Source of the DNA: a virus
Taxonomy: Duplodnaviria > Caudoviricetes
Direction: 5' to 3' (one strand)
Length of the DNA stretch: 53,960 nt
IMG/VR virus record: IMGVR_UViG_3300042464_000289
Location: 1-53,960 of that record
Part shown: in pieces, positions 156 through 53,631 of the stretch
Layout of the letters: each line of letters opens with the position of its first letter
How positions within the stretch are numbered: the first letter of the stretch is position 1
The notes under the pieces: generated by a model
What the model was told of the DNA's origin: nothing
What the model saw: only the letters and a program-made list of their open reading frames with translations
Database searches by the model: none
Program-made: the position numbers and the translations under genes

Positions 156-2819
156 TCCGAATACTGCCATTAGTAGGTTCCACCCTGTAGCGCCTACAGT
201 AAGGTTACACCCTATCTTAGTAAAGGTAGTAGTGGCTCTTACTATGAACGGCACATAGTATATTCTACCTGATGATAGGGCCTTAGCTGCTACATCAGTA
301 GAGCAATAGCAGGAGTAATATCTAGCAGCTACATAATGGCAGTGATGCCTTGAGATGTCACCGTAGAATATTACATCGTCTGCAGTAGCGGAGGACAGTA
401 CATTTATACCTACAGTACCTGTAGTAACTAAGTCTGCAGAAGAGCCGCTAGTATACCTAGGAATTCTGTTTGCTGCAGGTGTAAGTGCGTTAATAGCAGT
501 TAGCGCTGCATTCAACGTAGGGACACCTAAAGTAGCTCTAGCAGTAGTAGCGTCTGCATCATCTAACAGCGTACGCGCGAAGGCAGTGAACGTAGCCAGC
601 GCAGCAGTACCGCTACCAGTGAAATAAGGCAGCTTATCGGCAGCGCTTGTAAGTCCTGCCACTGCCTGAAGGTTAGGGTTCTGTGCTTGTACGTTAGTGC
701 CTATTACTAGGCCTAACGTAGCCCTTCCTGCTGTGGCGTCTGCGTCGTCTGCTATAGACCTTCCAAAGGCAGTAAAGTTAGCTAGAGCCATAGCTCCAGC
801 GCCTGTGAAATATGGTAGCCTGTCAGCAGCGCCTGTCAGCCCTGCTAGTGCTGATAGATTAGTTACTGATGCAAGGCCTGCAATGGTTCCTAGGTTAGCT
901 ATAGAAGCGTAGCCTATGAACGTAGTAAGGTTAGCTATAGAGGCGTAGCCTGCTATAGTTACTAAGTGCGATACAGACGCTAGTCCTGACAAGCTCTGTA
1001 AGTTAGCGTGGTAAGCTTGTACGGCAGTGCCTATGCCTACTCCTAATGTAGTTCTAGCTGAAGCTGCGTCTACGTCATCTAGTAGAGTTCTGCTGTAAGC
1101 TGTTACACTGGTTACGGCAGCACTGCCTGAACCAGTGTAATAGATCATAGTATCGGCAGAAGTGCTAGCGCCTGCTATAGCAGCTAGGTTACTGTTAAAG
1201 GCTTGAACGTTAGTACCTATAACCAGACCTAAGTGAACTCTAGCGTCTGTAGAATTAGCTACTGCTACTAGGTCCCTAGCGTATGCAGTGAAGACGTTAA
1301 CTGCTAGAACGTCTGCATCTGTGAAGTAGGGTAGCCTGTCTGCTGCTGCAGTAAGGTTAGACAGTGACTGCAGCTTAGCGTTTTGCGCTTGTACGTTAGT
1401 GCCTAGTACTAGACCTAAAGTAACTCTAGCAGTAGTAGAGTCTACATCGTCTAAGAGTGTACGCGCGAAGGCAGTGAACGTAGCCAGCGCAGCAGTACCG
1501 CTACCAGTGAAATAAGGCAGCGTATCGGCAGCGCTTACTAGGGTAGACAGGGCTAGTAGTTCAGGGTCAGAACTAGGGCTACCCGTAGGTCCTGCAGGTC
1601 CCGTAGCTCCCGTAGCTCCCGTAGCTCCCGTAGGCCCTGTAGCTCCCGTAGGTCCTGCAGGTCCTGTAGCTCCTGCAGGTCCCGTAGGTCCTGTAGCTCC
1701 AGTAGGGCCTACGTCTCCTGTTAACCCTGTAGAGCCTGCAGGCCCTGCAGGGCCTGCAGGTCCCGTAGCTCCCGTAGGGCCTGCAGGTCCCGTTAATCCT
1801 GTAGCTCCCGTTAATCCTGTAGCTCCCGTAGCTCCTGCAGGTCCCGTAGGTCCTGCAGGTCCCGTAGCTCCCGTAGGGCCTGCAGGTCCAGTTAATCCTG
1901 TAGCTCCTGTAGGTCCTGCAGGTCCAGTTAATCCTATAGGGCCTGTAGCTCCTGTAGGCCCTGTTAATCCCTGAGGCCCCTGGTCGCCCTGTATTCCCTG
2001 AGGGCCTTGCGCTCCCGTAGGTCCTGCAGGCCCTGTTAATCCTGTAGCTCCCGTAGGTCCCGTAGCTCCTGCTACGCCTGCTGCTCCTGCTGTTCCCGTA
2101 GCTCCTGTAGGTCCAGTTAATCCGGTAGGACCTGTTAACCCCTGAGGCCCTGTAAGGCCTGTAGCTCCAGTAGCTCCCGTAGCTCCCGTAGGGCCTGCAG
2201 GCCCTGTGTCTCCTGTATCTCCTTTATCGCCCTTAGGCCCTGCTACTCCTGCAGGTCCCTGAGGCCCTGTAGCTCCTGTAGCTCCTGTAGCGCCGGTTAA
2301 TCCCGTAGCTCCTGCAGGTCCCGTAGCTCCTGCAGGTCCCGTTAATCCCGTAGCTCCAGTAGGTCCTGTAGCTCCTGCTACTCCCTGAGGTCCCTGAGGT
2401 CCCTGAGGTCCTGCGTCTCCTGTATCGCCCTTAGGTCCTTGTGGTCCTGTAGCACCAGTAGCGCCGACACCTGCAGCGCCTGTAGCTCCTGTAGGTCCTG
2501 TTAATCCTATAGGGCCTGCTACTCCCTGTAAGCCCTGAGGTCCTGTAGGTCCCGCTACTCCTGCAGGTCCTGTAGCTCCTGCAGGTCCCGTAGGTCCTGT
2601 AGGCCCTGCTACTCCCTGCGCTCCCTGAGGTCCTGCAGGCCCTGGTGTAGAGCTAACTGAGTTTACTAGGGTAGTAATCTGCGCGGACGTTAGGAGGTCT
2701 AGTAGCGTACGTACTTCTGCAGGTGTTTTAACTACAGGAGTGTCGTTAGACCCTCCTACTACGAAGTTGTCTACAGGTATACCAGAAACATCCTGATAAG
2801 CACTGCCTGTACCTGGCAT
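1..2819 (-). CDS. Collagen-like tail fibre/adhesin, 5' part (continues across the join to 53616; ~1002 aa total)
   Basis: ATG at 2819 ([15 protein letters not shown]...), Gly-X-Y run ~2642-1585, then ~60 aa repeats ([28 protein letters not shown]) and a C-terminal globular domain (...[11 protein letters not shown]...). Not in the ORF track because it has no stop before base 1; both ends translated by hand are in the same frame. Confidence 0.9.
571..1536. repeat. 78 bp near-exact intragenic direct repeat (571-648 and 1459-1536)
   Basis: gtacgcgcgaaggcagtgaacgtagccagc...tatcggcagcgctt occurs twice with one mismatch; these are two of about six degenerate ~60 aa repeats. Confidence 0.9.
1585..2642 (-). 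repeat. Collagen (Gly-X-Y)n tandem 9-nt repeats
   Basis: Recurrent gga gct acg / gga cct gca / gga cct acg codon triplets ([15 protein letters not shown]). Confidence 0.95.
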
Positions 2820-2824
2820 AAGTA

Positions 2825-3172
2825 TTACTGCCTAGACGATAAAAACACCTGAACTAACACACGAAGTATTAGAAGTAGTACCCTTTCCGAAGTGAGTAGG
2901 CGCAAAATCCAGGGGATTAGAGGCAGTACTATAGGCAGTAGCTTAGTATGAAAATCAAAGTCCTGCTCTATCTGTTCCCTCGTATAGCCGCCTAGAGTTT
3001 CTAGGCCAGTACTGGCATCTGCCTTATATACCCTTAGAAAAGCTTTAGACACTCTAGGCAGTTTAGCTCTAGCCTTACCTAGGTCTTCTGCATTGTATAG
3101 AGAGGAACCGCAGAGAAGGCGATTGCCTGACAACATTGTAAGCGCCAGTGCGTTTAGTTGGTTTTCATTCAC
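2825..3172 (-). CDS. Hypothetical protein with hydrophobic C-terminus
   Basis: 115 aa, overlaps upstream stop; C-terminal [16 protein letters not shown]...[13 protein letters not shown]. Confidence 0.65.
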
Positions 3173-3558
3173 TTAAGTCTAACCCTTAGTAAGCCTGTCT
3201 TAAACCTAATGACTACAGATTCCTTCTCTGCTTCTAAGGCTGTTACAGTAAGTCTTACCGGAACGCCTGCAGCTTTACCTGTTACAGTTACACCTGACAC
3301 AATACTAGCGCCGCTAGTATTAAGTCTAATGTAAGCGCCTTCTGCTACCTCTACTGTCCAGTCCCCTGCCTTATGTCTTCCAGTACGTAGCATAGACACA
3401 GCTACCGCTACTGCGTCATCTGCTAGGTCTAGCTCTACATCGTATAAGGAACCTACTGGTAGCTCCTTTGGTTCTACTATAACGGAAGTACTCCTGTTAG
3501 CCCATAAGACTACCAGGAGTACAGCGCCGACAAGTGCAAAGGCTCTTATCTTGTCCAC
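3169..3558 (-). CDS. N-terminally membrane-anchored hypothetical protein
   Basis: AFALVGAVLLVVLW anchor followed by beta-rich region; coupled to neighbours. Confidence 0.65.
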   Translation of the reverse strand: MDKIRAFALVGAVLLVVLWANRSTSVIVEPKELPVGSLYDVELDLADDAVAVAVSMLRTGRHKAGDWTVEVAEGAYIRLNTSGASIVSGVTVTGKAAGVPVRLTVTALEAEKESVVIRFKTGLLRVRLK

Positions 3559-4481
3559 GTTATTACGCGCCTTCTGTTATTGCCTTTGATAGTGTAGTTA
3601 GGTGTAGTTCTAGTGGGAGGGTGTAAGGAATTGTGTAGCGCTTCTATCTGCTCATCTGTCATGGAATCCAGCCTGTACTGAGGTACTCCATGATCGTCTC
3701 TCAGGTGGTAGTAGTTCGGTATCCTAGGAGCGCCGTCTACGCTACCCTTAGCCGCCTGCTGTGATATGCCTGCCTGCCTTACAATGTCCTGCCATTTCAT
3801 AGGTCCTAGGCCGCGCCATATTTCTACGCCGTCTCTGTTCCTTAGAATGAACGTAGGCAGCTTAGTAACTCCTAGAAGCTTAGCGCTATCAGAGTTAGCA
3901 GTGTAGTTAATCTTATTTAGTACGCCTGTAGGATATGTGTCCGCCCATGCGTTAGCGTCAAAGAACCTACATGGTTCGCACCATGTATCTGTCCACATGT
4001 CTACAGTATACTCAGGTCCTTCTGCCTTAGCAGGTTCTTCCTCTACAGCCTTGCTGAGTGCGCCTAAGTCTGTACGTAGCTTAGCAGACACTGCTACAGC
4101 TATACGTTCTACGTCTTCGTCTGAAAGCCTGTACTGCCCTGCTACCTCCTTAGCTAACCTGTCTACGTCTTCAGCAGTAAGGCCAGGCGCCTTATATGCC
4201 TGTTCCTGTACTTTGGCTACTGCTTCCTCTAGGCCTTCTATGTCGTCTGACATTACCCTTACAGAGGTAGCTAGGTTCTGCTGTTCGCAGTCTTCCTCTG
4301 CAGCCTGCTGTACTACTGTCTGTAGTACTTCCTCCTGCTCTGCAGGCTTACTAGCTGTTAGTTCCTTCAGCGCTCTACTAGCTGAGTCTATGCCTACGTG
4401 CTCTACCTTTAGAGTAGTCCCGCACCCTGCTAGCGCCATAGCTAACATGAATACTAAGACCTTCTGCGTTTTGTGTCCCAC
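3546..4481 (-). CDS. Lipoprotein with coiled coil and thioredoxin-like CxxC domain
   Basis: Signal peptide with lipobox LAGC; coiled-coil middle; WTDTWCEPCR active-site-like motif and GVTKLPTFIL cis-Pro loop; His-rich C-terminal motif HLRDDHG...LHNSLH. Confidence 0.8.
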   Translation of the reverse strand: MGHKTQKVLVFMLAMALAGCGTTLKVEHVGIDSASRALKELTASKPAEQEEVLQTVVQQAAEEDCEQQNLATSVRVMSDDIEGLEEAVAKVQEQAYKAPGLTAEDVDRLAKEVAGQYRLSDEDVERIAVAVSAKLRTDLGALSKAVEEEPAKAEGPEYTVDMWTDTWCEPCRFFDANAWADTYPTGVLNKINYTANSDSAKLLGVTKLPTFILRNRDGVEIWRGLGPMKWQDIVRQAGISQQAAKGSVDGAPRIPNYYHLRDDHGVPQYRLDSMTDEQIEALHNSLHPPTRTTPNYTIKGNNRRRVITWTR

Positions 4482-4493
4482 TGTGCCGTTCTC

Positions 4494-5321
4494 CTACCTT
4501 GTTACAGGGCGTGCGATGTAGTCCCACCTAGGGGCTACAATGCCCTTAGCTGTGGTCATGCCCCACATTGTTGTATACCGAGCGCTAAACATCCCGTCTA
4601 ACACCCTACGCTTAAGTAGCGTAGTACCTTTGTCTGCCCAGCGTATGCTGTGCGAATTTATAAGCCTAGGGCAGGTATCGCCGTTAAGCTTCTTATAGCC
4701 TGCTATGGTCACACTGTGTCCGCCTGCGCTGCGTCCTGAGTAGTTCTCTACTATAGGCCCTGCGCCAGACAATGACGATAGCCAGGATATACCTATATGT
4801 AGAGGCCCCTGATTAGATTCTACCCACGTTATAACATCATCTGGTGAAGTCATACGGAAGAACTTAACCACTGAGTAAACGCGGTTAGCTTCTGCTTCCT
4901 GGCGTGTACCTGGCGCAGGTGGTTGTCTTGTGTATCGCTGCGGGTATGTCCAGAACTTCTCTAGGCACAGGCCCTTAGTTATAACGTTAAGTCCGTTACG
5001 TACTGTAGAGCCTTCGTCTCCGTTAATCCCGTCTAGCTCCTGCGTCCATATGTAGGCGCCCATACGGGTTAGCTGCAGTATCTCGCCTGTCTCCAGGTAG
5101 ATTACAATTTCGCCTGACGTTGCAAGGCTGTTGCCCTGGCAGCTTCCTATAGGTAACTGGTCTTCTATTCTAAGCCAGGCTCTATAGTCTATCTCAGGAG
5201 GTACGTCGGACTTCGCATAATCAGCGCAGGCAGACTTAGAAATAACGTCTGCTTCACTCATAGCGTTAAGCAGGTCAAAGTCTTCTAGGTCATAACGCCA
5301 GGTGTTAATAGTTTCCGCCAT
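4494..5321 (-). CDS. Papain-like cysteine peptidase (C1 family)
   Basis: VPPEIDYR, DQLPIGSC (oxyanion Gln, catalytic Cys), GGHSVTIAGY (His), INSHSIRWADKG (Asn). Confidence 0.9.
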   Translation of the reverse strand: MAETINTWRYDLEDFDLLNAMSEADVISKSACADYAKSDVPPEIDYRAWLRIEDQLPIGSCQGNSLATSGEIVIYLETGEILQLTRMGAYIWTQELDGINGDEGSTVRNGLNVITKGLCLEKFWTYPQRYTRQPPAPGTRQEAEANRVYSVVKFFRMTSPDDVITWVESNQGPLHIGISWLSSLSGAGPIVENYSGRSAGGHSVTIAGYKKLNGDTCPRLINSHSIRWADKGTTLLKRRVLDGMFSARYTTMWGMTTAKGIVAPRWDYIARPVTR

Positions 5322-5322
5322 G

Positions 5323-5442
5323 CTACCTAATCCTTAGTAGGGCCTTACACATGAACACAAAAAGTCTTACTGCTGCTAGTATGACTGCGCACACAGTGAC
5401 TATGAAAAACACTAGACCTAGCAGGCCTATTATGCAGGTCAT
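5323..5442 (-). CDS. 39 aa single-TM membrane peptide (not in ORF track)
   Basis: MTCIIGLLGLVFFIVTVCAVILAAVRLFVFMCKALLRIR; ATGA overlap with the upstream stop, ends 1 nt before the peptidase ATG. Confidence 0.7.
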   Translation of the reverse strand: MTCIIGLLGLVFFIVTVCAVILAAVRLFVFMCKALLRIR

Positions 5443-5885
5443 TTTTCTTCCGCCTTAGGCTGTAGGCCTGCCTTCAAAAGCTTAGAGTCTAACTCTTCTA
5501 AGGCCTTAGTAATGTTACCGTAGACTTCCCTAGCCTTTGCTGGCGTCCAGGTACTTTTCTTACTGCCTTCATCAGGTGCAAAGGCTTTACTAAGGTACTC
5601 ATCTAGAGGCAGGTAGGCCTGGTTAGTAGCTTCCTTCTGCAGCTTCAACAGAGACTCATTGAACTGCGTTTCTGTGGTAGTGTCTGTTAGCTGCTCTAGT
5701 GCTGCCTTATAGGCGCCTGCACTGTATGACACTAGCCTAGGCGTAACATGTGCTGCGGGGTGCGTTAGTCCTGTAGGCCGCGCGTCCTTGTCTCTGGTAG
5801 CGTTAGAGTAGATAGCGCTGCCTACGAACATAGCGCACAGCAGTAGCATTATTTTTCTGTAGTCTACTTCACCCATTAGAAACAT
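5439..5885 (-). CDS. Membrane-anchored/exported hypothetical protein
   Basis: N-terminal IMLLLCAMFVGSAIY hydrophobic segment, helical remainder. Confidence 0.65.
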   Translation of the reverse strand: MFLMGEVDYRKIMLLLCAMFVGSAIYSNATRDKDARPTGLTHPAAHVTPRLVSYSAGAYKAALEQLTDTTTETQFNESLLKLQKEATNQAYLPLDEYLSKAFAPDEGSKKSTWTPAKAREVYGNITKALEELDSKLLKAGLQPKAEEK

Positions 5886-6495
5886 CCTCTGACCACTGCG
5901 CCGCCATAGCTGTGGCTATACCGGCATACGTTAAGGACCTTAGCTTGCCTCTATTAGGTCCAGGGGACATGTTATGAACTTTACTTTCCCTGCCGTCTAC
6001 TATGTTGGTAGGCAGTAGGTTAGGCAGGCCCTTAAGCCATAGACAGGTAGCCTTAGTTTCACCGTGTCCGAATTGCCAGGGCTGTATAATCTGGCTAGGC
6101 TTTCTAAGCCTGCTAGATATAATGCTGATAGGGTTCTCAATTGCAAGGTGTGCAACAGGCAGGCCTAGCATATACTCTACTAGCTTAAGCGCTGCTTCCT
6201 GTTCTGCTTCGTACTTATGGAAGTGAAGGGCGCCGCTAACTGCTAGCCTAGTACAGGGAGGGTGTGCTATTACTAGGTCGTACTTAAGCCTACCTTCGTA
6301 GATGCCCTTAAGTACGTCCCATATGTCACCCTGTATATGCAAGCCTGGTGATTCTGTTGGCAGTAAGTCACAAGACCAGGCCTCGTGTCCTCTAGCTGTG
6401 AAGGCATCCCTAACACGTCCGGAGTATTCACAAGCTACTATAACCTTAAGCTTGCCTTTAGGCCCTAGATACGGAAGTCTTACTACGTTAGCCAT
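5869..6495 (-). CDS. Short phage-type DNA cytosine methyltransferase-like protein
   Basis: VIVACEYSG, WSCDLLP, HPPCT (catalytic PC), AIENP and RSLTYAGIATAMAAQW motifs. Confidence 0.8.
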   Translation of the reverse strand: MANVVRLPYLGPKGKLKVIVACEYSGRVRDAFTARGHEAWSCDLLPTESPGLHIQGDIWDVLKGIYEGRLKYDLVIAHPPCTRLAVSGALHFHKYEAEQEAALKLVEYMLGLPVAHLAIENPISIISSRLRKPSQIIQPWQFGHGETKATCLWLKGLPNLLPTNIVDGRESKVHNMSPGPNRGKLRSLTYAGIATAMAAQWSEDVSNG

Positions 6496-6643
6496 TAGTG
6501 CCTCTATCCACGCCCTAGATATTAGAACGCTGCAGGTACTGACCCTGCTATCCTTCCCATACGTACTGCTTATACTAAGTCTAGACCCTAGTACGGCATC
6601 TGGCCAGATAATACATAGAACGTGGATAGAGGCACTAAGTGTG

Positions 6644-7177
6644 CTACTTAACTACAGAAGACACTACAGAGGCCTTAGGCCTTGCGTCGATAGACTCCAT
6701 CGGAACCGTTAGGCCACCTGAAAGCTTAGCCCAGGCCTGGCTTAGTTCCTTACTTAAGTCTATGTCCGGGCGTTTGCTATGCTCTGTAGTAAGCAGCGCC
6801 AGAATACCTATGATAAGGTCTGGAAGTTTGCCGTCTGCCTTACCTACAGAGAACTGTAGTAGTCTGATTAGTTCGCTAGTAACCAGCGCCCTAGAATCAG
6901 GGGACTGGCTTATCAGTGTAGATAGTTCCTGGACTAGCGCAGGAAGGCGAGTGATAGCCTGCTGCTCTGTGATAGGAAGATTCTCGCCTATTACAGGCTT
7001 CTTAGAAAAGAAAGCCTGTAGTGCCTTTAAGATAGGCTGTACTGGTGACGGGATAGCTACGCCTACCGTAACTAGAATAGCTACGATAGCCATAAGGCTG
7101 TTTTGTGATAAGGTGAAGTTCAGTAGGTCAGACATGGGCGTTAGCCTTAGAAGTGTGTAGAAAGTTACCTCTACCAT
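6644..7177 (-). CDS. Membrane-anchored hypothetical protein
   Basis: LMAIVAILVTVGVAI TM segment; true start may be MSDLLNF. Confidence 0.6.
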   Translation of the reverse strand: MVEVTFYTLLRLTPMSDLLNFTLSQNSLMAIVAILVTVGVAIPSPVQPILKALQAFFSKKPVIGENLPITEQQAITRLPALVQELSTLISQSPDSRALVTSELIRLLQFSVGKADGKLPDLIIGILALLTTEHSKRPDIDLSKELSQAWAKLSGGLTVPMESIDARPKASVVSSVVK

Positions 7178-7205
7178 AGTACTCCTAAGGCTCTTACGCC
7201 GTACA

Positions 7206-7565
7206 TTATTTTTGTGTCTCTATAGTTGATATAGAGTCTGGTCTGCCTTCTTCATCCCTAGCGTCTCTTTCGGCTAGCTCATCCCTTATATCCTGTTCGC
7301 GCTCTGCTACTGCTGCGCGTACGCTTAGTGCTGTTACTGTGTCCTTAACTTCAGAGAATTCTTTGTGCATGTCCTCTATCCTAGCGAACAGCTTAAGCCT
7401 GTCTTCCTCGCACTCCTTTAGCTTAGTACGTATGAAGTTAAAGACAGTAGCGCAGGCTGTAGTCAGAATACCTCCTGCCCATAATATAAAAGTCTGGACA
7501 GGGTCATTAGTGGTTGTAGCTGTTTGGGCTATGGTTAGTATAACCCCTAATGAAGAATAAATCAT
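7206..7565 (-). CDS. TM plus coiled-coil protein (holin-like or lysis-associated?)
   Basis: Hydrophobic N-half (FILWAGGILTTACATVF), then charged coiled coil; overlaps the portal stop. Confidence 0.55.
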   Translation of the reverse strand: MIYSSLGVILTIAQTATTTNDPVQTFILWAGGILTTACATVFNFIRTKLKECEEDRLKLFARIEDMHKEFSEVKDTVTALSVRAAVAEREQDIRDELAERDARDEEGRPDSISTIETQK

Positions 7566-8956
7566 ACCCCTACTGTGCCTCCTGTTGCTGGATCTATTGT
7601 GCCTTCTGTTGTTCCGCCGTTTGCATCTAAGCCGCGCTTCAGTACGTCTAATGGTGAACCGTCCTGGCCTGCTAGAGCAGGGTCCCTAGATGGTATGCCT
7701 GTTATGTCCCTAATAGCCGCCATGTCTACAGAATCGAAGTCTAGTAGTGCAAGGTCTGCGTTTCCTAGTATCTGCTTATATAGGTCCCTTAGGAATAGCT
7801 TTTCGTCTGCCCCTACAGGTGAGCTAATAACCTTAACAGACTTAGCAGCTTCAGGCCCGAAGTTCATGTAGAGGCCTGCGTAGACAGGGCCTTTGTTTAA
7901 GGTAGCTAGTACATAGTCTACCCTATCTGCAGCTACAGTAAGCGCTACGTCTGCGTGCGCTTCTGCTTCTGCCTTTGTTCCATGTTTACCTTCCAGGATA
8001 GCTCGTTCTGGTAACCCTAAGCCTCTCACCTTAAGGGTGTCTAAGTACTGTGCCCTAGCTAGGAAGGAGGCAGCGCCCCCTGCACCTGTTTCCTTAAACT
8101 CTATTTCCCAGTCGTTAGCTGTAATAATCTTGTTATAGGGTTGTCCGCCTGTGGCAGGGCCTAGCGCTGAACTTATGGCAGCAGGTATGCAAAGGCCTCC
8201 ATTAGACTTAATGGAGGCTAAGAGGCTCTTAGCTATAAACAGATTATCTGTCATAGCTCCAGCGTACATTGTCTGCCCTACAGGGTATCTAACTACCCAT
8301 GTACCGCCAGCGCTTTTTTCGTCGTACTTATCAGCGTTAGACATTGTCTTATCGTATCGCTGCATAGTCTGGTCTAAGTCTTCTAGGTCCCCTACTCCAT
8401 AGAAGTTAGAGCCTTCCTGGTACTGGTTGAATAGTACCGCCTTAGCCATGCCTGAGATAGTAAGCTCTGTGTCCTTACCTTTAGCGTCTTTGAACTTCTG
8501 TTGAAAGCCTACAAAGTCTGCTGTAGTAGGGTCTATCAGAATCTTAGTTATGTCTACCAGTAGATTAGTAAAACGATCTACTACCCACTGTCCTGCTTCG
8601 TTAGCTACCCATACAGGCTCTAGCCCGCACCACCCATAATCTATCATAGAAAACAGTGCAGCTTTTAGTATGCTCTGCTTATGCTCTACGAAGCTTTCTA
8701 CTACGTAGTCCTCTGCGCCTTCAGGTGCGCCCTCTGTTGCTTCTACTGTCCAGTCTGCTGCAAGTGCTGGAGCTATACATAGAAGGCGCGCTAACTTAAC
8801 TACAGGGTCCCTTCTTACCTCTCGTGCGCGTGCATACGTAACAGCGCGCGAGTAATCAATGGTAGAGGTCTTATCGTCAAACGTTAGACCCTGTACCATT
8901 TGAAGCGTAGCGAAAGCGCTATCGTCTATCTTTACTGCTTCTACTTCGGTCGGCAT
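7562..8956 (-). CDS. Portal protein (Mu gp29/DUF935-like)
   Basis: 464 aa directly after TerL; DYGWCGLEPVW, NFYGVG, G-T-K-A-E-A-E-A-H pattern. Confidence 0.8.
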   Translation of the reverse strand: MPTEVEAVKIDDSAFATLQMVQGLTFDDKTSTIDYSRAVTYARAREVRRDPVVKLARLLCIAPALAADWTVEATEGAPEGAEDYVVESFVEHKQSILKAALFSMIDYGWCGLEPVWVANEAGQWVVDRFTNLLVDITKILIDPTTADFVGFQQKFKDAKGKDTELTISGMAKAVLFNQYQEGSNFYGVGDLEDLDQTMQRYDKTMSNADKYDEKSAGGTWVVRYPVGQTMYAGAMTDNLFIAKSLLASIKSNGGLCIPAAISSALGPATGGQPYNKIITANDWEIEFKETGAGGAASFLARAQYLDTLKVRGLGLPERAILEGKHGTKAEAEAHADVALTVAADRVDYVLATLNKGPVYAGLYMNFGPEAAKSVKVISSPVGADEKLFLRDLYKQILGNADLALLDFDSVDMAAIRDITGIPSRDPALAGQDGSPLDVLKRGLDANGGTTEGTIDPATGGTVGV

Positions 8957-8959
8957 TTG

Positions 8960-10252
8960 TTACCCTACAAGCTCAAAGCTAAGGCCTGAGTATATGACTG
9001 CTTCTGTCTTAGCTATAACGTCTATAGGTCTAAGGTAGCAGATAAGATAGCCTAGCGCATCGCTACTGTGTCCTATGGTCTTGTCCCTGTGGTCTACGTC
9101 ACTGGTAGAAGGCTTAAAGGCCTGCTGCTTCAAGTCTGTTATAAGTCCTAGACATGTAGGATGTATAAAGACATGGCGCTTACCGTCTCCAGAACGTAGC
9201 GCTGCGTTTGTAACCGCGAACCTAGTAGCTAAGCTAGGGTTACTGTCCGGATATATAATACTCTTATCACCGAATCTAAGGTCATTATTTATGATTAGAT
9301 AGTCAGTGTAATCAGATGAAGTACTGCGCTGCCTAGAGGCTGCGTCTCCCGTGAAGGTCCACCCTGCTCTATGGTTAGAGTAACGGCTATACAGATAATC
9401 TAATGTTCTCTGTGTAGTAGTGTTGCGTATCTTAATTTCGTCAAACACTACTATGTTGCCATTAACGTAGTGAGCTAGAACCCAGGACATAGGATCTACG
9501 TTAAAGTCTGAACCTACATAGATAGGCCTGTTTCGGTCATACTGTGCAGCGCTGGTTACGTTAGCTATTTCAGAGAACTCTACATACACACCACCCATAG
9601 CACTTAACCAGGTAGCGTTAAACTGCTCTTGAAAGTCTGCATCTGATAGCTGTGATTTAACCTCATTTAGTTTGTCTAGTCCTAGGATATCTGAACTAGG
9701 CCAGGAGGCGCAGTATCTATCTGATTCCTTAGCGTGGAACCACTGCCTGTACTCTGTAGCACTACTTCCGAAGCGCTTAGGTACGCCTATACGCCAACAG
9801 AATCTACAGTGGTGCATGAGGGCAGGCACTAAGGACCTAGACCATACGCCCTCCTTATAGTCGCACGCTTCATCTACTACCCCGCCTGACCACTGCACGC
9901 CTTCTATACGTTCTGACTTATCTCCGCCTAGAACGTATAGCGTAGAACCAAACTTAGTGGTAATGGTCATATCTGAAACAGATACATCTTTAACCCACTG
10001 TTTAGGTATTAGGTTTAGTAAGTCGCCCCACGCTACGCGCTTAGCCTGCGCCACTGTAGGAAGCAGGTAGAAGTAGATAGGATTAGCAAGGCCAGGCGTA
10101 GACTCTGCAAGGCCTCTAACTAATCGCATCTTAGCTAACATACTTTTGCCTGAACCACGCCCGCACGCTAGGCCTACAAACTTCTCAGGCGCGAAGAATG
10201 CTCTACGTTGTTTCGGGTGTGGTTGTCTAGGCTTAAGGTCTGTTATGGACAT
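8960..10252 (-). CDS. terL: Terminase large subunit
   Basis: PHPKQ, Walker A GRGSGKS, Walker B VVDEA, nuclease GSDFNVDP and HSSDALGY. Confidence 0.95.
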   Translation of the reverse strand: MSITDLKPRQPHPKQRRAFFAPEKFVGLACGRGSGKSMLAKMRLVRGLAESTPGLANPIYFYLLPTVAQAKRVAWGDLLNLIPKQWVKDVSVSDMTITTKFGSTLYVLGGDKSERIEGVQWSGGVVDEACDYKEGVWSRSLVPALMHHCRFCWRIGVPKRFGSSATEYRQWFHAKESDRYCASWPSSDILGLDKLNEVKSQLSDADFQEQFNATWLSAMGGVYVEFSEIANVTSAAQYDRNRPIYVGSDFNVDPMSWVLAHYVNGNIVVFDEIKIRNTTTQRTLDYLYSRYSNHRAGWTFTGDAASRQRSTSSDYTDYLIINNDLRFGDKSIIYPDSNPSLATRFAVTNAALRSGDGKRHVFIHPTCLGLITDLKQQAFKPSTSDVDHRDKTIGHSSDALGYLICYLRPIDVIAKTEAVIYSGLSFELVG

Positions 10253-10611
10253 TAGTGTAGCTGCGTCTCTGAGTAGTTAGGTACTGCTGCCTGTGGTATA
10301 GCTCTAGGCTTAGCTACTGCGTCTGCCTCCTGCTTCTTTAGCCAGGCCTCTAGCTCTGCAGTGTCGATACTGTAACGCGCTGCCAGTATGCGCCTACCAT
10401 AGTCTAGGGCCTTAAGCAGCGATAGAAGGCCTGCAGTCCTGCTTAAGACAAGGTGTCTTACAACGTACTTAATAACGTTGCCTTCTGCGAATGGTATATC
10501 GTTAGCGCAGATAAAGGTTATAGGCTGTATAGCGTAGCCTGTGTAGTGCGTTCCGCCCTGCTGCTTATCACTAGCCCAATTCTCTACTACTTCTGTTTCC
10601 CTAGTCATCAC
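10252..10611 (-). CDS. DUF3310-like (nucleotide kinase-associated) protein
   Basis: QQGGTHY...IQPITFI...FAEGNVIKYVVR...LLKALDY. Confidence 0.8.
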   Translation of the reverse strand: MMTRETEVVENWASDKQQGGTHYTGYAIQPITFICANDIPFAEGNVIKYVVRHLVLSRTAGLLSLLKALDYGRRILAARYSIDTAELEAWLKKQEADAVAKPRAIPQAAVPNYSETQLH

Positions 10612-11213
10612 ATAGCCTCTAACTCTGCAAGTGTCTTGAACGTTGGCGCTACTTCCTCAGGGCCTGCAGTAGCTTGTATAGTTTCTACGTACTCGCCTTC
10701 TGCCTTAGGTATCAGCGCGTCTATCTGTGCTACAGTCTCTGCAGGGCTAAGTATCTCAGGCCCTTCCGTAGTACTTAGCATATGGAAGACCGTCGATAGC
10801 TCATGCTCTATCTCATCTAGTAGCGCCGGATCGTGTCCACACAATCTAACTACAGTACTCTGTAGAGTCTGTGCAAGTGCTGCCACCATAGCAGGCTGTA
10901 CGCGCATACTAGACTCTATATCTGCTGCAGTCTTAGCCATACGCCTGACTGTGTCTAGTGCTTCTCTTACCAGTGGTTGCAAGCTGCCTATAGACTTAAG
11001 CAGCAGCGCGTTGTCTCCTGCGTCCATAGCCTGCGTTGTAGCTGCTTCGTACGCTATGACTACGTCCGATAGCTGCTGCCTAGCTAGGGCTAATTCCTCT
11101 AGCGTAGATAGCTGAGATACTGTAGGCCCTCGCATGAAGCAGCTAACAGCAGTAGATATTCTACCGCCTGCTGCGCCATAACGTTGTACGTAACTATGTC
11201 TTTCCGCTATCAT
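10608..11213 (-). CDS. Helical protein, possible terminase small subunit
   Basis: Position two genes upstream of TerL; STLEELALAR and coiled-coil character; positional inference only. Confidence 0.5.
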   Translation of the reverse strand: MIAERHSYVQRYGAAGGRISTAVSCFMRGPTVSQLSTLEELALARQQLSDVVIAYEAATTQAMDAGDNALLLKSIGSLQPLVREALDTVRRMAKTAADIESSMRVQPAMVAALAQTLQSTVVRLCGHDPALLDEIEHELSTVFHMLSTTEGPEILSPAETVAQIDALIPKAEGEYVETIQATAGPEEVAPTFKTLAELEAM

Positions 11214-11220
11214 GTTAGCC

Positions 11221-12114
11221 CTAGCTTATTCGAACTACTTTGCTAGGTCCTGTATACTCTGTTCTAGGAAAGTTAGTCCAAAGATGTTCTAACTTCGTTG
11301 CCTTAGTACTAGAGCTAGAGCTATGTAGCGGTACAGACATAATGTGCGCCTTCCACCCGTTACGCCTAGCGTAGTACTCATACATACTAGAGGCATAACC
11401 AGACAGGTAGAAACTGCCTTCTATAGTCTGCAGTCTAGTTAGCAGTGCTTCGTGTTGCTCTGCTGTCATTTCGTGCGCGTAGCTATCCCTATCTGACCTT
11501 GTCTCATGCAGGTAGGGAGGGTCTAGGTAGAATACTGTAGTAGGGCTATCGTACTTCCTAATAACCTCTAGCGCGTCGCTATTGAGGATAGTAACCCTGC
11601 GTAGTCTTTGTGCAACAGGTCCTAAGCCTTCTATAGCGCTTAGGTATGCGCTAACGCTTTCACCCATACCACCACGAAGCCTAGTACTCTGTGTAGCGAA
11701 GTCCTTCATAAGGGCCTGGCGTGATTGTCGCACAGCTACAAATAGACTAGCTGCTACCTCTACCTGTTGCCCTAGGTCTAGTGGTACGTCTGCTGCTGCC
11801 ATTAGGTCTATTAAGTCTAAGGCCTGCTCTAGTGAGTCCTCTGCGAATGGTGTAAGAGTTAGCCTCTGCTGTAGTGCTGGTAGCTGTTCTCTCAGTACGC
11901 GCCAGAACGTTACTAGGCTCTTAGACTTGTCCGATACTACTTCTGCTATACCGTCGTAGTGTTGATTATGCAGCAGTACAGAACCGCCTCCAAAGTAAGG
12001 CTCTACATAGCAGGCATTACTAGGTAACTGTATAAGGCTTAGAATCCACTTCGCTAGTTTGCCGTTATGGGCGCCCTTGCCTCCATGCCACTTAAGTGGT
12101 AGGTGTAGTGACAT
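11221..12114 (-). CDS. DNA adenine methyltransferase (D12/Dam-like class)
   Basis: PLKWHGGK, YVEPYFGGGSV (motif I), FYLDPPY (motif IV), LSGY, EHLWTNF. Confidence 0.92.
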   Translation of the reverse strand: MSLHLPLKWHGGKGAHNGKLAKWILSLIQLPSNACYVEPYFGGGSVLLHNQHYDGIAEVVSDKSKSLVTFWRVLREQLPALQQRLTLTPFAEDSLEQALDLIDLMAAADVPLDLGQQVEVAASLFVAVRQSRQALMKDFATQSTRLRGGMGESVSAYLSAIEGLGPVAQRLRRVTILNSDALEVIRKYDSPTTVFYLDPPYLHETRSDRDSYAHEMTAEQHEALLTRLQTIEGSFYLSGYASSMYEYYARRNGWKAHIMSVPLHSSSSSTKATKLEHLWTNFPRTEYTGPSKVVRIS

Positions 12115-15419: not shown

Positions 15420-16049
15420 CTATGTTTCCTCGTTCAACAGTCTACGCATAGCAGAGAGGGCGCCTCTGTGAATGTTAGAGACACTGTGCCTAGACAGGTT
15501 CATAGATATCGCTATAGAGTCTAGGCTATGCCCTCTGCTGTGATTCCATAGAATGTAGCTCTGGTCTGGTGTAAGCTTAGGCAGGTTATCCTTTATAAGC
15601 TGCAGGCGCTGTTCTGCTAAGGTTACGTCTTCTGCCTCTAGTGCAACGTCTACAGGCGTTACCTTGTCTACAGGCTCTACTACGCTTCCTGAGTAGTCTT
15701 CTGTAGCCTGGCCTACGCTTACGCCTCCCTGCTTATGGGAAGCAGTACGTGCCTTAAAGTAAGTTCTGCCCACAATGTAGTAGAACTCTATAACACAGAA
15801 GTCTTCAAAGGTCTTACCCTTAGTAGCGTCAAACTTCTGGACATAGTGTGCATACCTAAGGCAGAAGTGTGTGTTAACCAGTTCATCTCTAGTAGCTGTT
15901 CTGTCTGAGTCTCTCACCATCATAGGGCAGTTAACGAAGGTAACACTAGCTATCTTAGCTGCTACCTTGCATAGTCTAGTATAGAGCTTTTCTGTAAGTC
16001 CTTCTGCAAGTGTGGCAGGTACAGTGTTAGCGTCTAGTATAGCGTTCAA
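15420..16049 (-). CDS. Phage-encoded sigma70-family sigma factor
   Basis: Region 2-like KFDATKGKTFEDF; region 4 HTH LTPDQSYIL...SLDSIAISMNLSRHSVSNIHRGALSAMR; TTG start. Confidence 0.75.
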   Translation of the reverse strand: MNAILDANTVPATLAEGLTEKLYTRLCKVAAKIASVTFVNCPMMVRDSDRTATRDELVNTHFCLRYAHYVQKFDATKGKTFEDFCVIEFYYIVGRTYFKARTASHKQGGVSVGQATEDYSGSVVEPVDKVTPVDVALEAEDVTLAEQRLQLIKDNLPKLTPDQSYILWNHSRGHSLDSIAISMNLSRHSVSNIHRGALSAMRRLLNEET

Positions 16050-18647: not shown

Positions 18648-19250
18648 CTACTTCCAGGTGTTACCAGACCGCCATTCTTGAATAGACTGTGTAGCGCCAT
18701 TGCGCCCCACTACAATATGGTCTACTACTGGAATACCGATAAGCTCTGCTGCAGACTCCAGGCGTTCTGTAACGCTGATATCTTGACTAGAAGGAGTACA
18801 GTCCCCGCTAGGGTGATTGTGTACCACGATACAGCAATTAGCTGCGTCTGCAATGCAAGGCCGGAAGACTTCTCTAGGGTGCACTAGGCTGTTCCGTAGT
18901 GTGCCCTTAGTAACCTGGTGCGCCTTGATTGGTACGTTCTTAGTGTCCAGAGACACTACCCAAAATTCCTCCTGTGTCCCGTAGTTTGCAAGCTCTGCAA
19001 AGTGTGCCGCGCACCAGGCACAGGCCTCTGCAGGTGACAGGATTCTAGTAGAGAAGTCTAGTGTAGGCTTAGCTACTTCTGTAGCTATCTGGAAAGCTGC
19101 TTCCAGGTTCTGCGCCTGCTTAGGTGTTAGGCCTGCTTCGATGAAGTCCCAGGCAGACATTGCGCGAAGTGCTGTAAGGTCCTGAGGCAGAAGTTCTACG
19201 TTTGAACCTACCAGAGCGCGGATAGCTTTAACCAGTGTTGAAGTAATCAT
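18648..19250 (-). CDS. radC: RadC-like JAB/MPN domain protein
   Basis: QEEFWVVSLDTKN, GTLRNSLVHPREVF, HNHPSGDCTPSSQD, VVDHIVVG. Confidence 0.93.
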   Translation of the reverse strand: MITSTLVKAIRALVGSNVELLPQDLTALRAMSAWDFIEAGLTPKQAQNLEAAFQIATEVAKPTLDFSTRILSPAEACAWCAAHFAELANYGTQEEFWVVSLDTKNVPIKAHQVTKGTLRNSLVHPREVFRPCIADAANCCIVVHNHPSGDCTPSSQDISVTERLESAAELIGIPVVDHIVVGRNGATQSIQEWRSGNTWK

Positions 19251-20340: not shown

Positions 20341-20940
20341 TTAGGGGGTCCGTTTCAGACTATAGCTGCGCACAGTAGGTGCGTCTATAGGGTGGCCTTC
20401 TTTTTTCCTGATTATCCAGGAATTAACTACCAAGTCAGGCAGGATGTTATCGTCTTCCGTAGTCTCTACCTCCATTAGGCTTAGGCCTGTGTGACGACAG
20501 AACGCAGCTACAGCTAGCTGTACCTCTAAGCAGTTTGAGTAGTCATGCCCTGCCAGTATTCCACCATACTCTATCTTATGCCACCATAGCACACACTGCG
20601 TGAAGGTGTCGCAAAAATCGTGAGCGCTGTCCACATACACAAAAGATAGGCTACGGTCTGCGAATTCATCTACAATGAACTCCGCGCGTCCTACGATAAC
20701 CTTAGAGCGTTCACCATGTCTAGACAGTAGGCGCCTGCAGTGCGCTAAGTCTGTGTCTGCCTTATCCTGCGTTGCATACCCTGGAAGGCTAGCGTTCCAG
20801 GGGTCTATAGAGTACAGGGTACTAAGCTTAGAATGTTCTAGCAGGTAATCTGAGTAGGCGCCAGACCCTACGCCTACCTCTACACCCTGCCGCGCTCCTA
20901 TGCTATCTAGTAGCGCGGGTATCTCGTTTCTGCTTCTCAT
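20341..20940 (-). CDS. Class I SAM-dependent methyltransferase (Methyltransf_24-like)
   Basis: GVEVGVGSG, YSIDPW, FVYVDSAH, GGILAGHDY. Confidence 0.88.
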   Translation of the reverse strand: MRSRNEIPALLDSIGARQGVEVGVGSGAYSDYLLEHSKLSTLYSIDPWNASLPGYATQDKADTDLAHCRRLLSRHGERSKVIVGRAEFIVDEFADRSLSFVYVDSAHDFCDTFTQCVLWWHKIEYGGILAGHDYSNCLEVQLAVAAFCRHTGLSLMEVETTEDDNILPDLVVNSWIIRKKEGHPIDAPTVRSYSLKRTP

Positions 20941-22520: not shown

Positions 22521-22843
22521 GTTGTTTCCCCCTTTATGCTGTATGTTCTATCGTCGTTAAGCCTATATACGTAGGTCCTGCTTATGCGCCATGGTTCGCA
22601 CTGGTAGCCTAAGCCTTCTGCGTAGTAGGTAACGTAGTACCCCTTATCTACAGCCTGAACCAATACTACCATTACCTGTACTTCCCACATGTCAGGCTTA
22701 ACGCAGCGCGAGTAACCTACAGGAGGTAGAGTAGCACAGAAATTAAAGGACTTAGCCAGGTCAGTTATTGCCGATATCATCTCAGTGTGTAACGTCTTCG
22801 GCATAACCCTTCCTAGGTCCTTAGCCCTGCTTACACTATTCAT
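22517..22843 (-). CDS. Hypothetical protein
   Basis: 108 aa, overlaps both neighbours. Confidence 0.6.
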   Translation of the reverse strand: MNSVSRAKDLGRVMPKTLHTEMISAITDLAKSFNFCATLPPVGYSRCVKPDMWEVQVMVVLVQAVDKGYYVTYYAEGLGYQCEPWRISRTYVYRLNDDRTYSIKGETT

Positions 22844-23288
22844 CTTTAACCCTTCTGAAAGTTAGTTTACCACCGTTAGCTTCGTTCTTGCATCTGCCAT
22901 GTATAAGATGCCTGCTAGGCGCTCTGTGCCTTTTGGCTACTACCTTATTACAGTCTAGACAGATAACCTCTACCTTCCGTACGTAAGGTGCAAAGGTGTC
23001 GTCTGCTCTAGCCTGTGCTAGCGCTCCTATCTCACGGCACTTAGCCTGCCAAACTTCATCATGTACATGTCCAGGCGTTAGAGCGTGCGCTATCTCATGT
23101 AGTATAGTATCTATAATCTGCATGTTAGTGTGCGTCTCCAAGTGCTCTTTAGCTATCTGTATTTCACGCCTTCTATAGTGGCAGCGCCCTAAGTTAGACT
23201 TAGAGTGTATTAGGCGGAACTTCCAGGAAGGTAGATTATACTTCTGCAGGAAGGTTAGCGTTATCTGTTCTGCAAGTTCCGGAGACAT
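22836..23288 (-). CDS. SprT-like zinc metalloprotease
   Basis: LGRC, TILHEIAH (HExxH), HDEVWQAKCREIG, C-terminal CLDC. Confidence 0.9.
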   Translation of the reverse strand: MSPELAEQITLTFLQKYNLPSWKFRLIHSKSNLGRCHYRRREIQIAKEHLETHTNMQIIDTILHEIAHALTPGHVHDEVWQAKCREIGALAQARADDTFAPYVRKVEVICLDCNKVVAKRHRAPSRHLIHGRCKNEANGGKLTFRRVKDE

Positions 23289-24684: not shown

Positions 24685-24719
24685 GTTGTAGCCTTATAGG
24701 GTGGTCTGTGTGTGCGTAG

Positions 24720-24793
24720 TAGGCCCTCAGGGACTTGAACCCTGAACCAACAGATTATGAGTCTGCTGCTCTAACCAATTGAGCTAAGAGCCT
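24720..24793 (-). tRNA. tRNA with CAT anticodon, probably tRNA-Ile2 (lysidine-modified, reads AUA)
   Basis: AGGCTCT TAGCTCAATTGGTTAGAGC A GCAGA CTCATAA TCTGT TGGTT CAGGG TTCAAGT CCCTG AGGGCCT A; full cloverleaf, Ile-like acceptor (A1, C4-G69), no encoded CCA. Confidence 0.92.
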
Positions 24794-53326: not shown

Positions 53327-53631
53327 GGGGTTATAATCTCAGACTTTCTTTGTTCGGTTAACAGGCCCTTAGCCACTAACAGAGATAGGCAGTTAGCTAG
53401 CTCTGTGCTTTGTAGGTCTATAGTCTCCCTGGCCTGTAGCCTAAGCCTTAGGACAGTTACAGAATCGTCTAACGATTCGTCTATTCCTACCATTTCAGGC
53501 ACAGTGAATCTAAGCAGAAACTGCTCCGCGCTTATAACCGGATTAGGTGCAGGGTCTGGTATAGTTTCTACACTTACTAACACACCATCTAACCACGTTT
53601 CTCTAGTGCCCATTGTTACAGCCTTAGCCAT
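53323..53631 (-). CDS. Small protein after the fibre (fibre assembly chaperone-like)
   Basis: ISAEQFLLRFTVPE...LVAKGLLTEQRKSEI pattern typical of fibre-adjacent phage proteins. Confidence 0.6.
   Translation of the reverse strand: MAKAVTMGTRETWLDGVLVSVETIPDPAPNPVISAEQFLLRFTVPEMVGIDESLDDSVTVLRLRLQARETIDLQSTELANCLSLLVAKGLLTEQRKSEIITP

Follow-up and report, generated by a model that had tools for sequence, protein, structure and literature searches.

A late gene block encoding a papain-family peptidase and a thioredoxin lipoprotein is a candidate lysis module in a tailed phage whose most likely hosts are planctomycetes

INTRODUCTION

The lambda-type lysis cassette (S, R and Rz/Rz1) brings together small membrane proteins, a signal-less hydrolase and an exported pair with transmembrane (TM) and lipobox anchors, all encoded by tightly packed late genes, and lambdoid phages keep S, R and Rz upstream of the terminase. 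To our knowledge, all tailed phages examined to date rely on a muralytic enzyme to break the host wall. Here we analyse a block of eight genes, at positions 2825–7565 of a 53,960-nucleotide (nt) stretch of Caudoviricetes DNA (IMG/VR record IMGVR_UViG_3300042464_000289, referred to below as the window). The block is built like the lambda-type cassette, and in two related loci, L015 and L010, its counterpart is found just upstream of the terminase. It differs in having a papain-family protease as hydrolase and a thioredoxin domain on one of the exported proteins, and no family of holins, endolysins or spanins is matched by the sequence of any of its products.

Single components of the block can be compared with other described systems. 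The best solved relatives of the peptidase are xylellain of Xylella fastidiosa (3ois) and cathepsins S and B (MEROPS C1A), with the Gln/Cys/His/Asn residues as expected; the phage enzyme has a short N-terminal extension and no long I29 prodomain, and a similar extension is reported for xylellain. In contrast to these enzymes, the phage peptidase belongs to a distinct subfamily (at least 190 bits, versus about 110 or less for other bacterial C1 proteins) which is phage-borne, is always flanked by an exported partner and has inteins at the catalytic Cys in some members. Thiol chemistry also takes part in lysis elsewhere. P1 Lyz is activated by disulfide isomerisation, and Rz-Rz1 form intermolecular disulfides. 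By analogy, periplasmic thiol steps could control or complete lysis here as well; those systems use their own cysteines and host Dsb enzymes, whereas the present phage encodes an exported thioredoxin. Membrane- or lipid-anchored thioredoxin folds facing the periplasm and carrying a WCxPC motif are found in ResA, TlpA and CcmG, and ResA presumably has the same CEPC motif as the phage lipoprotein. Unlike them, the phage profile is closest to classical cytoplasmic-type thioredoxins and its gene is in a cassette with a protease. Finally, mycobacteriophages direct a cassette enzyme, LysB, against a lineage-specific envelope layer other than peptidoglycan (excerpts of PMC6116114 and PMC3314691). LysB is a lipid esterase always accompanied by the peptidoglycan hydrolase LysA, whereas here the enzyme is a protease and no LysA equivalent is detectable.

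The lysis-cassette make-up and late-operon position of the block are supported by the results below. From sequence comparisons we judge it somewhat probable that the block serves host lysis in a tailed phage of Planctomycetia, a protease being the effector and thiol reduction assisting it. Literature searches on lysis by planctomycete phages and on a papain-thioredoxin lysis cassette yielded no description, and the block is probably an undescribed means of bursting hosts whose wall abounds in cysteine-linked protein.

RESULTS

Organisation of the block

All eight genes have the same orientation, on the minus strand, and follow one another between the portal and fibre genes at distances of -17 to +148 nt (Table 1). 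The start of the first one, encoding a membrane protein of 119 amino acids (aa), overlaps the stop codon of the portal gene. An earlier note on this DNA, made by a model from the letters and open reading frames (ORFs), had described a tightly coupled late cluster here. The same order is conserved in L001, from a 51.5-kb contig with a terminase 69% identical to that of the window. L001 keeps all seven non-methyltransferase genes, six of them detected by BLASTP at 28–55% identity and the 115-aa gene by jackhmmer.

In addition to the peptidase and the lipoprotein, the earlier note counted six TM-containing proteins. Five of the genes concerned (7206–7565, 6644–7177, 5439–5885, 3169–3558 and 2825–3172) do encode a hydrophobic segment as judged by hydropathy; the sixth, 5869–6495, encodes a DNA methyltransferase lacking any TM segment. 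Hydrophobic proteins account for 6/8 genes in the block versus 8/62 elsewhere (Fisher p 5e-4), and several of the eight outside calls are obvious false positives. No second membrane-protein cluster exists in the genome.

The methyltransferase gene, which overlaps the next gene by 17 nt, is missing between homologous neighbours in L001. Its absence from this otherwise syntenic locus indicates an insertion into the cassette, and the methyltransferase is probably not part of the cassette function.

A C1 peptidase subfamily with inteins at the active site

The peptidase matched PF00112 over residues 41–239 with 23.9 bits (cut-off 20.7, E 5.1e-5), and relatives reach 47–51 bits with the same family. 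At the sequence level it matches genuine C1 proteases (xylellain, cathepsin S and cathepsin B). Among solved structures, 3ois, a bacterial C1 protease, was retrieved at E 3.8e-8 and cathepsin S at 3e-4, in alignments that include the catalytic residues. Q55, C61, H202 and N222 are invariant in 10/10 aligned homologues, with the Gln of the oxyanion hole six residues before the Cys and the Asn as the residue orienting the His, so that the intact catalytic set read in the earlier note is confirmed. The protein has neither a hydrophobic N-terminus nor a signal peptide. About 40 residues precede the mature domain, and no I29-type prodomain was matched there in Pfam. The families CHAP (PF05257) and NlpC/P60 (PF00877) were absent from the Pfam matches of the peptidase and of all other scanned ORFs.

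A word-indexed protein search returned relatives of the peptidase (only two) and of the lipoprotein (only one). When 1.84 billion representatives were searched exhaustively with a profile, 352 proteins (clusters at 50% identity) were retrieved at E<=1e-30, showing that the subfamily is sizeable; the 150 best of these 352 all score at least 189 bits. Sixteen of the 150 best relatives, among which 25 long forms were scanned, carry inteins, most with a LAGLIDADG homing endonuclease (P0008, P0014, P0029, P0037, P0039, P0054, P0070, P0071, P0080, P0096, P0106, P0120, P0127, P0128, P0129 and P0135). The junctions read ...IGS/C...HN/CQGNS, with slashes at the intein borders. Insertion is thus exactly at the catalytic Cys, which is the +1 residue. 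Inteins usually persist at conserved active sites of indispensable genes, and their presence at the active site argues for a peptidase gene indispensable to the phage.

Fusions occur as well: the C1 domain of five among the 150 best relatives is preceded by a hydrophobic anchor at the N-terminus and a helical domain some 200 aa long, and a sixth relative, P0058, has the same N-terminal extension (full set P0020, P0021, P0033, P0051, P0052 and P0058). The fused domain weakly resembles the exported partner encoded next to the peptidase (hhalign probability 60%, E 8e-5, 53 columns). In these fused proteins the peptidase would be exported and tethered on the periplasmic face, an arrangement suggesting that it acts in the envelope. 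We propose the peptidase as the effector of the cassette, as far as can be judged from these comparisons.

The thioredoxin lipoprotein

The signal peptide of the lipoprotein ends in the lipobox MGHKTQKVLVFMLAMALAG/C, which fits [LVI][ASTVI][GAS]C and predicts a lipoprotein. Behind it come charged helices (some 120 aa), then the thioredoxin domain (residues ~155–237) and finally a His-rich module (~255–290). The domain matched PF00085 just above the cut-off (23.8 bits versus 23.5, E 4.7e-5) and the NCBIfam thioredoxin TIGR01068 (E 2.6e-5). Both Cys of its WCEPC motif, C168 and C171, and the cis-Pro P209 are invariant in 8/8 homologues, in agreement with the thioredoxin motif which, like the lipobox, was noted earlier; the CxxC itself differs among homologues (CEPC, CGSC, CGPC, CAPC and CPPC). 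Structures were modelled for two proteins, the lipoprotein and the exported partner. The model of the whole lipoprotein was poor (AlphaFold, predicted local distance difference test score (pLDDT) 54.5); its residues 158–237 show the beta-alpha-beta-alpha-beta-beta-alpha pattern of thioredoxins.

Searched against the PDB, the family profile retrieved classical thioredoxins at 1e-11 to 1e-9, the best single domain being 6x0b (E 1.4e-11), and no DsbA-type oxidase occurred among the 60 best rows. The classical thioredoxins as nearest solved relatives are the only indication that the domain may act as a reductase rather than an oxidase.

The His-rich C-terminal module, HLRDDHG...LHNSLH, matched no known family and might be a metal site. 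Among the fetched loci it is common only to the lipoprotein of L011 (10866–11465), a thioredoxin-less protein which carries HLRSVHG...MHDNLH.

The exported partner protein

Between the methyltransferase and peptidase genes lies the gene of an exported protein (family A4/A5). Its model is confident (pLDDT 85.8), with a TM helix at residues 9–29 and further helices at 43–64, 72–101 and 115–138. Neither the PDB nor BFVD gave a match to the model at E<=1e-3, and the A4 profile found nothing below E 0.1 in the PDB. The best BFVD neighbour is A0A6J5RAJ8, a 141-aa protein of an uncultured Caudovirales phage annotated 'Lipoprotein' (E 0.012, TM-score 0.44–0.46), which may belong to the partner family according to this model comparison.

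With its anchor and helix bundle, the partner and the lipoprotein have the topology of a spanin pair, and no match to Rz/Rz1 was obtained for them. Prediction of a complex between the peptidase, the lipoprotein (22–311) and the partner (31–148, the scored chain) gave 0.00 and 0.01, values that speak neither for nor against binding.

The core is conserved in different phage layouts

Related loci were collected by a metagenome scan (14 loci) and by a scan with a broader profile that covered GTDB with one genome per species (74 loci); L004–L010 were treated as one lineage in counting. The cassette-type loci among them share a core in fixed order, in which the exported helical A4/A5 protein comes first, the C1 peptidase second and an exported thioredoxin with a membrane or lipid anchor third. 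Stop and start codons often overlap at the peptidase gene, and one to three small TM proteins usually precede the core. The A4 partner lies directly upstream of the cassette-type C1 gene in 15/17 lineages, the other two ending at a contig edge upstream. The thioredoxin lies directly downstream in 11/15 lineages having downstream sequence.

Local hidden Markov models (HMMs) made from the first loci recovered the neighbours in the unseen loci L014, L016 and G003:C2, and the A4 HMM also found the partner upstream of C1 in L092. Similarly, both neighbours are present in all three loci of a later survey (L102, L103 and L104). None of 70 other bacterial C1 loci has either neighbour. These other C1 genes score at most 110 bits, versus 230–258 for full-length cassette members outside the model.

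The genomic setting varies. In the window and L001 the cassette extends from the portal to the fibre gene, and in L015 and L010 it immediately precedes a gpA-type terminase and a lambda-type portal. L011 and L018 have it between baseplate J and tail-fibre genes, and in L003 it separates regulatory and early genes from the fibre-like genes that follow. The cassette is conserved and mobile, moving among different layouts but staying among late genes. In L017 (9824–12112) it is decayed: a frameshift splits the peptidase gene, which is separated from the thioredoxin gene by a gene with a lipid-desaturase domain (PF10520).

These settings bear on whether the peptidase could be a virion or entry enzyme or a morphogenetic protease, as might be suggested by its place in the window and L001, where the portal gene lies on one side and the fibre and MuF genes on the other. 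We hold this to be very improbable. The cassette is away from head genes in other phages, and the constant companions of the peptidase are membrane and exported proteins. A role in virion maturation, a concern of the earlier note, can be set aside: the separate candidates for a head protease, 50436–51449 in the window and a ClpP-type protease in a prophage of Thalassoglobus neptunius described below, rule out the peptidase as head maturation protease.

A large fibre-like gene follows the cassette in most loci. Alternatively, then, the block could be an accessory envelope module tied to the fibre gene, acting for example in superinfection exclusion, in remodelling of the receptor or surface, or in freeing virions from debris, with lysis carried out by a divergent endolysin. 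Lipoproteins encoded beside receptor-binding genes are known exclusion factors (T5 Llp, for example), the insertion of the methyltransferase shows that the region tolerates added genes, and about half of the window ORFs have no annotation. Nevertheless, a cytoplasmic, signal-less protease cannot reach surface receptors of an intact cell, and no other membrane-protein cluster is available as the true lysis cassette. In L015 and L010 the block occupies the place of lambdoid lysis genes, and the active-site inteins argue for an indispensable gene. Such an accessory role thus appears unlikely.

L011 and L018, two phage or prophage loci with baseplate genes, encode a second classical protease, a matrixin, directly upstream of the cassette (8316–9239 and 8338–9240, respectively; PF00413, E ~2e-36) with a PG_binding_1 domain and a PRCGCPD motif, and no glycosidase or amidase is present in either locus. 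We rejected the PG_binding_1 domain as proof of peptidoglycan binding, since together with PRCGCPD it is equally usual in the matrixin pro-domain, a combination that we take to be that of a normal matrixin zymogen. A peptidoglycan-binding role may still exist, to judge from the domain alone.

Small membrane proteins flanking the core

The 119-aa product of the first gene has the form of a small membrane protein with a charged C-terminus and is, by analogy, a holin-like candidate. Its homologue in L001 is found at the same place (37% identical). It gave no match in Pfam, PHROG, NCBIfam or PADLOC, and so none to any holin family. The 177-aa protein that follows (43% identical in L001) is possibly a holin or a holin regulator. 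Downstream of the lipoprotein, the 129-aa protein (30% identical in L001) has an exported domain that looks beta-rich by eye. Neither of these two matched a family in PHROGs or in Pfam, including matches at E<=1.

The 115-aa protein, which also has no family match, ends the cassette with a C-terminal anchor. An analogous C-terminally anchored protein does so in seven other lineages (L001, the L009 group, L010, L011, L013, L015 and L018); in L003 it is encoded upstream of the C1 gene instead. A scan of 2000–11500 for promoters and terminators gave fewer promoter-like sites than shuffled sequences, and nothing usable.

The cassette occurs in Planctomycetota genomes that encode Cys-rich YTV proteins

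Four cassette-type matches were found among GTDB species genomes, all in Planctomycetota: Thalassoglobus neptunius KOR42, and metagenome-assembled genomes (MAGs) of Bythopirellula, Planctomycetaceae and Gemmataceae. In phylum samples searched with the profile at E<=1e-30, 4/401 Planctomycetota were positive (three new genomes and the centre genome), versus 0/401 in the phylum of a gammaproteobacterial MAG and 0/301 in that of a verrucomicrobial MAG, i.e. 0/702 together. The PVC or planctomycete host proposed in the earlier note agrees with these matches. The terminase of the window gave only distant matches, in 36 of the 401 planctomycete genomes, with at most 30% identity in near-full-length ones; no control phylum accompanies this figure and it was left out of the host assignment.

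YTV repeats are encoded in 7/7 cassette-bearing genomes versus 0/14 controls, and they are lacking in a Phycisphaerae MAG whose only C1 gene is a generic one. Signal peptides are present in two of the YTV proteins, with Cys contents of 11.7% and 12.4%, which substantiates the Cys-rich envelope protein expected by the earlier note. According to excerpts of PMC12673574, cell-wall preparations of three planctomycetes contained Cys-rich YTV proteins, and the YTV motif is exclusive to the class Planctomycetia. Taken together, these sequence data suggest that the phage most likely infects planctomycete bacteria.

Search for a muralytic enzyme

Sixty window ORFs of at least 90 aa were compared with Pfam and PHROGs, and no muralytic family (glycosidase, transglycosylase, amidase or endopeptidase) was matched. 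The same result was obtained with Pfam at E<=1 for 49 unannotated window ORFs (including 11 short and 3 plus-strand ones) and with NCBIfam for 16 window ORFs. Six-frame searches of the window for Phage_lysozyme, Amidase_2, SLT and Peptidase_M15_4 found none; these searches gave positive signals in 5, 6, 8 and 4 of 14 control genomes, respectively.

The earlier note had suggested looking in planctomycete prophages, and that of Thalassoglobus neptunius does carry the cassette. It extends over about 40 kb from a beta-clamp gene to an integrase and includes terminase, portal, ClpP protease, capsid, tail tube and tape measure genes. No muralytic domain was detected by Pfam in 24/30 ORFs of this locus (L015), 23/23 of L089 and 22/22 of L090. 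The L015 ORFs outside the scan are five minus-strand ones overlapping plus-strand genes, and the peptidase, which was identified by its own profile. A gene beside the prophage encodes a LysM L,D-transpeptidase. The statement of the earlier note that an endolysin is missing therefore stands for the window and this prophage, as a negative obtained with sequence profiles.

PADLOC, run on 15 proteins, returned only two coiled-coil chance matches (E 0.004–0.009) and no defence family.

The genome and its other modules

IMG/VR classifies the record as linear, with a CheckV completeness estimate of 85%. End comparison showed that bases 1–155 equal 53806–53960 apart from one mismatch, indicating a genome that is closed or terminally redundant; we treated it as closed, at about 53.8 kb. 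In keeping with the complete genome assumed by the earlier note, the fibre gene reads across the junction, giving a protein of about 1002 aa. The mismatch, at position 127, changes Ser to Asn near the C-terminus of this collagen-repeat fibre and is probably a population variant at the assembly junction; it would account for the linear label of the record.

All genes of the phage genome are on the minus strand. Its replication module consists of an SNF2 helicase, a primase-MCM helicase, a family A DNA polymerase and a ligase. Table 1 also gives several cargo genes and two further methyltransferases. The product of 28623–29522 is the sole sizeable membrane protein outside the cassette.

The sequencing runs in which the stretch was found are lake-water metagenomes, with no RNA run among those listed. 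Searches for close relatives were negative in IMG/VR (with the C1 peptidase and with the portal), in cultured-phage records (tblastn) and in GTDB genomes (a first, narrow-pattern scan).

Table 1. Features of the window, with the eight genes of the block first
Feature	Coordinates	Strand	Length	Characteristics
Small membrane protein	7206–7565	-	119 aa	1–2 N-terminal hydrophobic segments; highly charged helical C-terminal half
Membrane protein	6644–7177	-	177 aa	TM segment ~28–46; helical C-terminal domain
DNA methyltransferase	5869–6495	-	208 aa	phrog_757, E 1.4e-64; no hydrophobic segment
Exported partner, family A4/A5	5439–5885	-	148 aa	N-terminal signal anchor, then three-helix bundle
Papain-family (C1) cysteine peptidase	4494–5321	-	275 aa	PF00112
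Lipoprotein with thioredoxin domain	3546–4481	-	311 aa	LAGC lipobox; PF00085
Signal-anchor protein	3169–3558	-	129 aa	N-terminal signal anchor, short exported domain (hydropathy)
C-terminally anchored protein	2825–3172	-	115 aa	Basic N-terminal domain; amphipathic, hydrophobic C-terminal tail
Mu-type portal protein	7562–8956	-		PF06074, E 2.8e-14
Large terminase	8960–10252			
Collagen-repeat tail-fibre protein	3–2819, crossing the circular junction into 53619–53960	-		PF01391, E 3.9e-52; tail-fibre PHROGs
MuF-like head protein	51465–52319			
Protease/scaffold candidate	50436–51449			Pfam, PHROGs
Major capsid protein	48856–49872			
Tape measure protein	44010–45977			
Family 2 glycosyltransferase	38842–39783	-		Cargo gene adjoining tail genes
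Weak match to sigma-70 region 4	15420–16049	-		Cargo gene
RadC-like JAB protein	18648–19250	-		Cargo gene
SprT-like metalloprotease	22836–23288	-		Cargo gene
tRNA-Met	24719–24793	-		Cargo gene
Methyltransferase	11221–12114			D12 class
Methyltransferase	20341–20940			
Membrane protein	28623–29522	-	299 aa	Three hydrophobic segments; early/replication region; no family match

DISCUSSION

If the block is a lysis module, it could work as follows. At a late stage of infection, at least one of the small membrane proteins (119, 177 and 115 aa) would permeabilise the cytoplasmic membrane as holins do. The signal-less peptidase would then enter the periplasm through the lesion, whereas in the anchor-fused relatives it would be exported directly, and there it would cut envelope proteins, the likeliest targets being the disulfide-rich YTV-type wall proteins of these hosts. 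The thioredoxin lipoprotein would provide thiol reduction, which either opens disulfides of the substrate or keeps the catalytic Cys reduced in an oxidising compartment. Both roles, reduction of the wall or service to the protease, are plausible and not separable. In addition, the two exported anchored proteins may bridge both membranes in the manner of spanins.

Several observations weigh against this interpretation. The earlier note had assumed a protein wall in place of peptidoglycan; this view is out of date, and planctomycetes do have peptidoglycan, as stated in the part of PMC4432640 consulted. Lysis without a peptidoglycan hydrolase would therefore be unexpected. The absence of an endolysin is a failure to detect one by sequence profiles, and a divergent hydrolase could sit among the approximately 35 window ORFs (about half) that are unannotated. 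We hold only tentatively, and as doubtful, the stronger proposal from these sequences that tailed Planctomycetia phages lyse without any peptidoglycan hydrolase, the thioredoxin reducing YTV cross-links and the papain-type protease, released by a holin or in some relatives exported by Sec, digesting the layer.

Alternatively, the block could be an ordinary holin-endolysin-spanin cassette in which the C1-type peptidase cuts the stem peptides or cross-links of peptidoglycan and the thioredoxin only protects its Cys. The peptidase has the position and the signal-less form of a soluble endolysin, and some of its relatives are anchored at the N-terminus as signal-anchor-release endolysins are. CHAP and NlpC/P60 enzymes share the papain-like fold, the presumed hosts have the substrate, and no other muralytic enzyme is detectable. 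Instead, the peptidase matches true C1 proteases and, in Pfam, neither CHAP nor NlpC/P60, and we know of no C1-family member that cuts peptidoglycan. A peptidoglycan enzyme would need no phylum limit, yet the subfamily occurs only in Planctomycetota genomes. In L011 and L018, moreover, the peptidase is paired with a matrixin-type protease and not with a glycosidase. We regard a peptidoglycan-cutting peptidase as improbable, about to the same degree as the accessory role considered above.

Other points bear on the proteolytic and reductive lysis module that we prefer. The small membrane proteins match no holin or spanin family in PHROGs or in Pfam at E<=1, so that the holin and spanin roles given to them in the earlier note are analogies. 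Beyond L001, the flanking membrane proteins of the other loci have no detectable homology to those of the window. Such diversity would be typical of holins and proves nothing. One relative, P0026, appears to be a C1-TM-thioredoxin fusion, which would keep the peptidase cytoplasmic; it may be an artefact of gene calling. The phylum contrast is weak when taken alone (3/400 versus 0/700, p 0.048), and agrees with the species-wide scan. Finally, the thioredoxin is missing in L011, L018 and L016 and replaced by a different CxxC lipoprotein in L012 (4/15 lineages), which implies that reduction is not indispensable in every lineage.

In the same way, some copies of the cassette are orphans: L108 (G212:C5, ~4144–6692), L111 (G161:C1, ~4058–6768) and G003:C2 (2038879–2041011). 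The neighbours in G212 and G161 are chromosomal genes (KaiC/KaiB, SpoIIE phosphatase, ribosomal protein L25), with no phage structural gene within ~20 kb. G003:C2 also looks chromosomal, on the weaker evidence of translated neighbours with no family scan. These copies indicate that the module may also serve the cell, and with the lineages lacking a thioredoxin they make the reductive-proteolytic phage exit of the earlier note an overstatement. One could go further and imagine a primarily cellular module, or a selfish autolysis or abortive-infection device of planctomycetes picked up by phages, an idea to which the housekeeping genes beside these orphans (probably also in G003:C2) and the frameshifted L017 copy lend something. 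It is quite improbable given that most copies with readable context are in late regions of phages or prophages, that no known defence family was matched, and that only 4/401 planctomycete genomes carry the cassette, which fits prophage cargo or remnants better than a core function. Orphan holin-endolysin cassettes are common remnants in bacteria, and by analogy the orphan copies may be remnants too.

Overall, the observations of the earlier note are partly confirmed and its interpretation partly supported. If the lysis module is what we propose, a papain-type protease with an exported thioredoxin would be a new class of lysis effector. If it also acts without an endolysin, a protein layer and not the thin murein would hold the cells against lysis, and the system would be tailored to one lineage. 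The question bears on what carries the mechanical load in the planctomycete envelope, disulfide-linked protein or peptidoglycan, and the cassette would make it testable with a natural reagent. Planctomycetes are hard to lyse and to manipulate genetically, and enzymes that open their envelopes would be useful tools. Experiments are possible, since the cultured Thalassoglobus neptunius KOR42 has a cassette prophage. The phage biology of these bacteria is almost unexplored: in a century-review of the planctomycete phylum, the word 'phage' occurs once.

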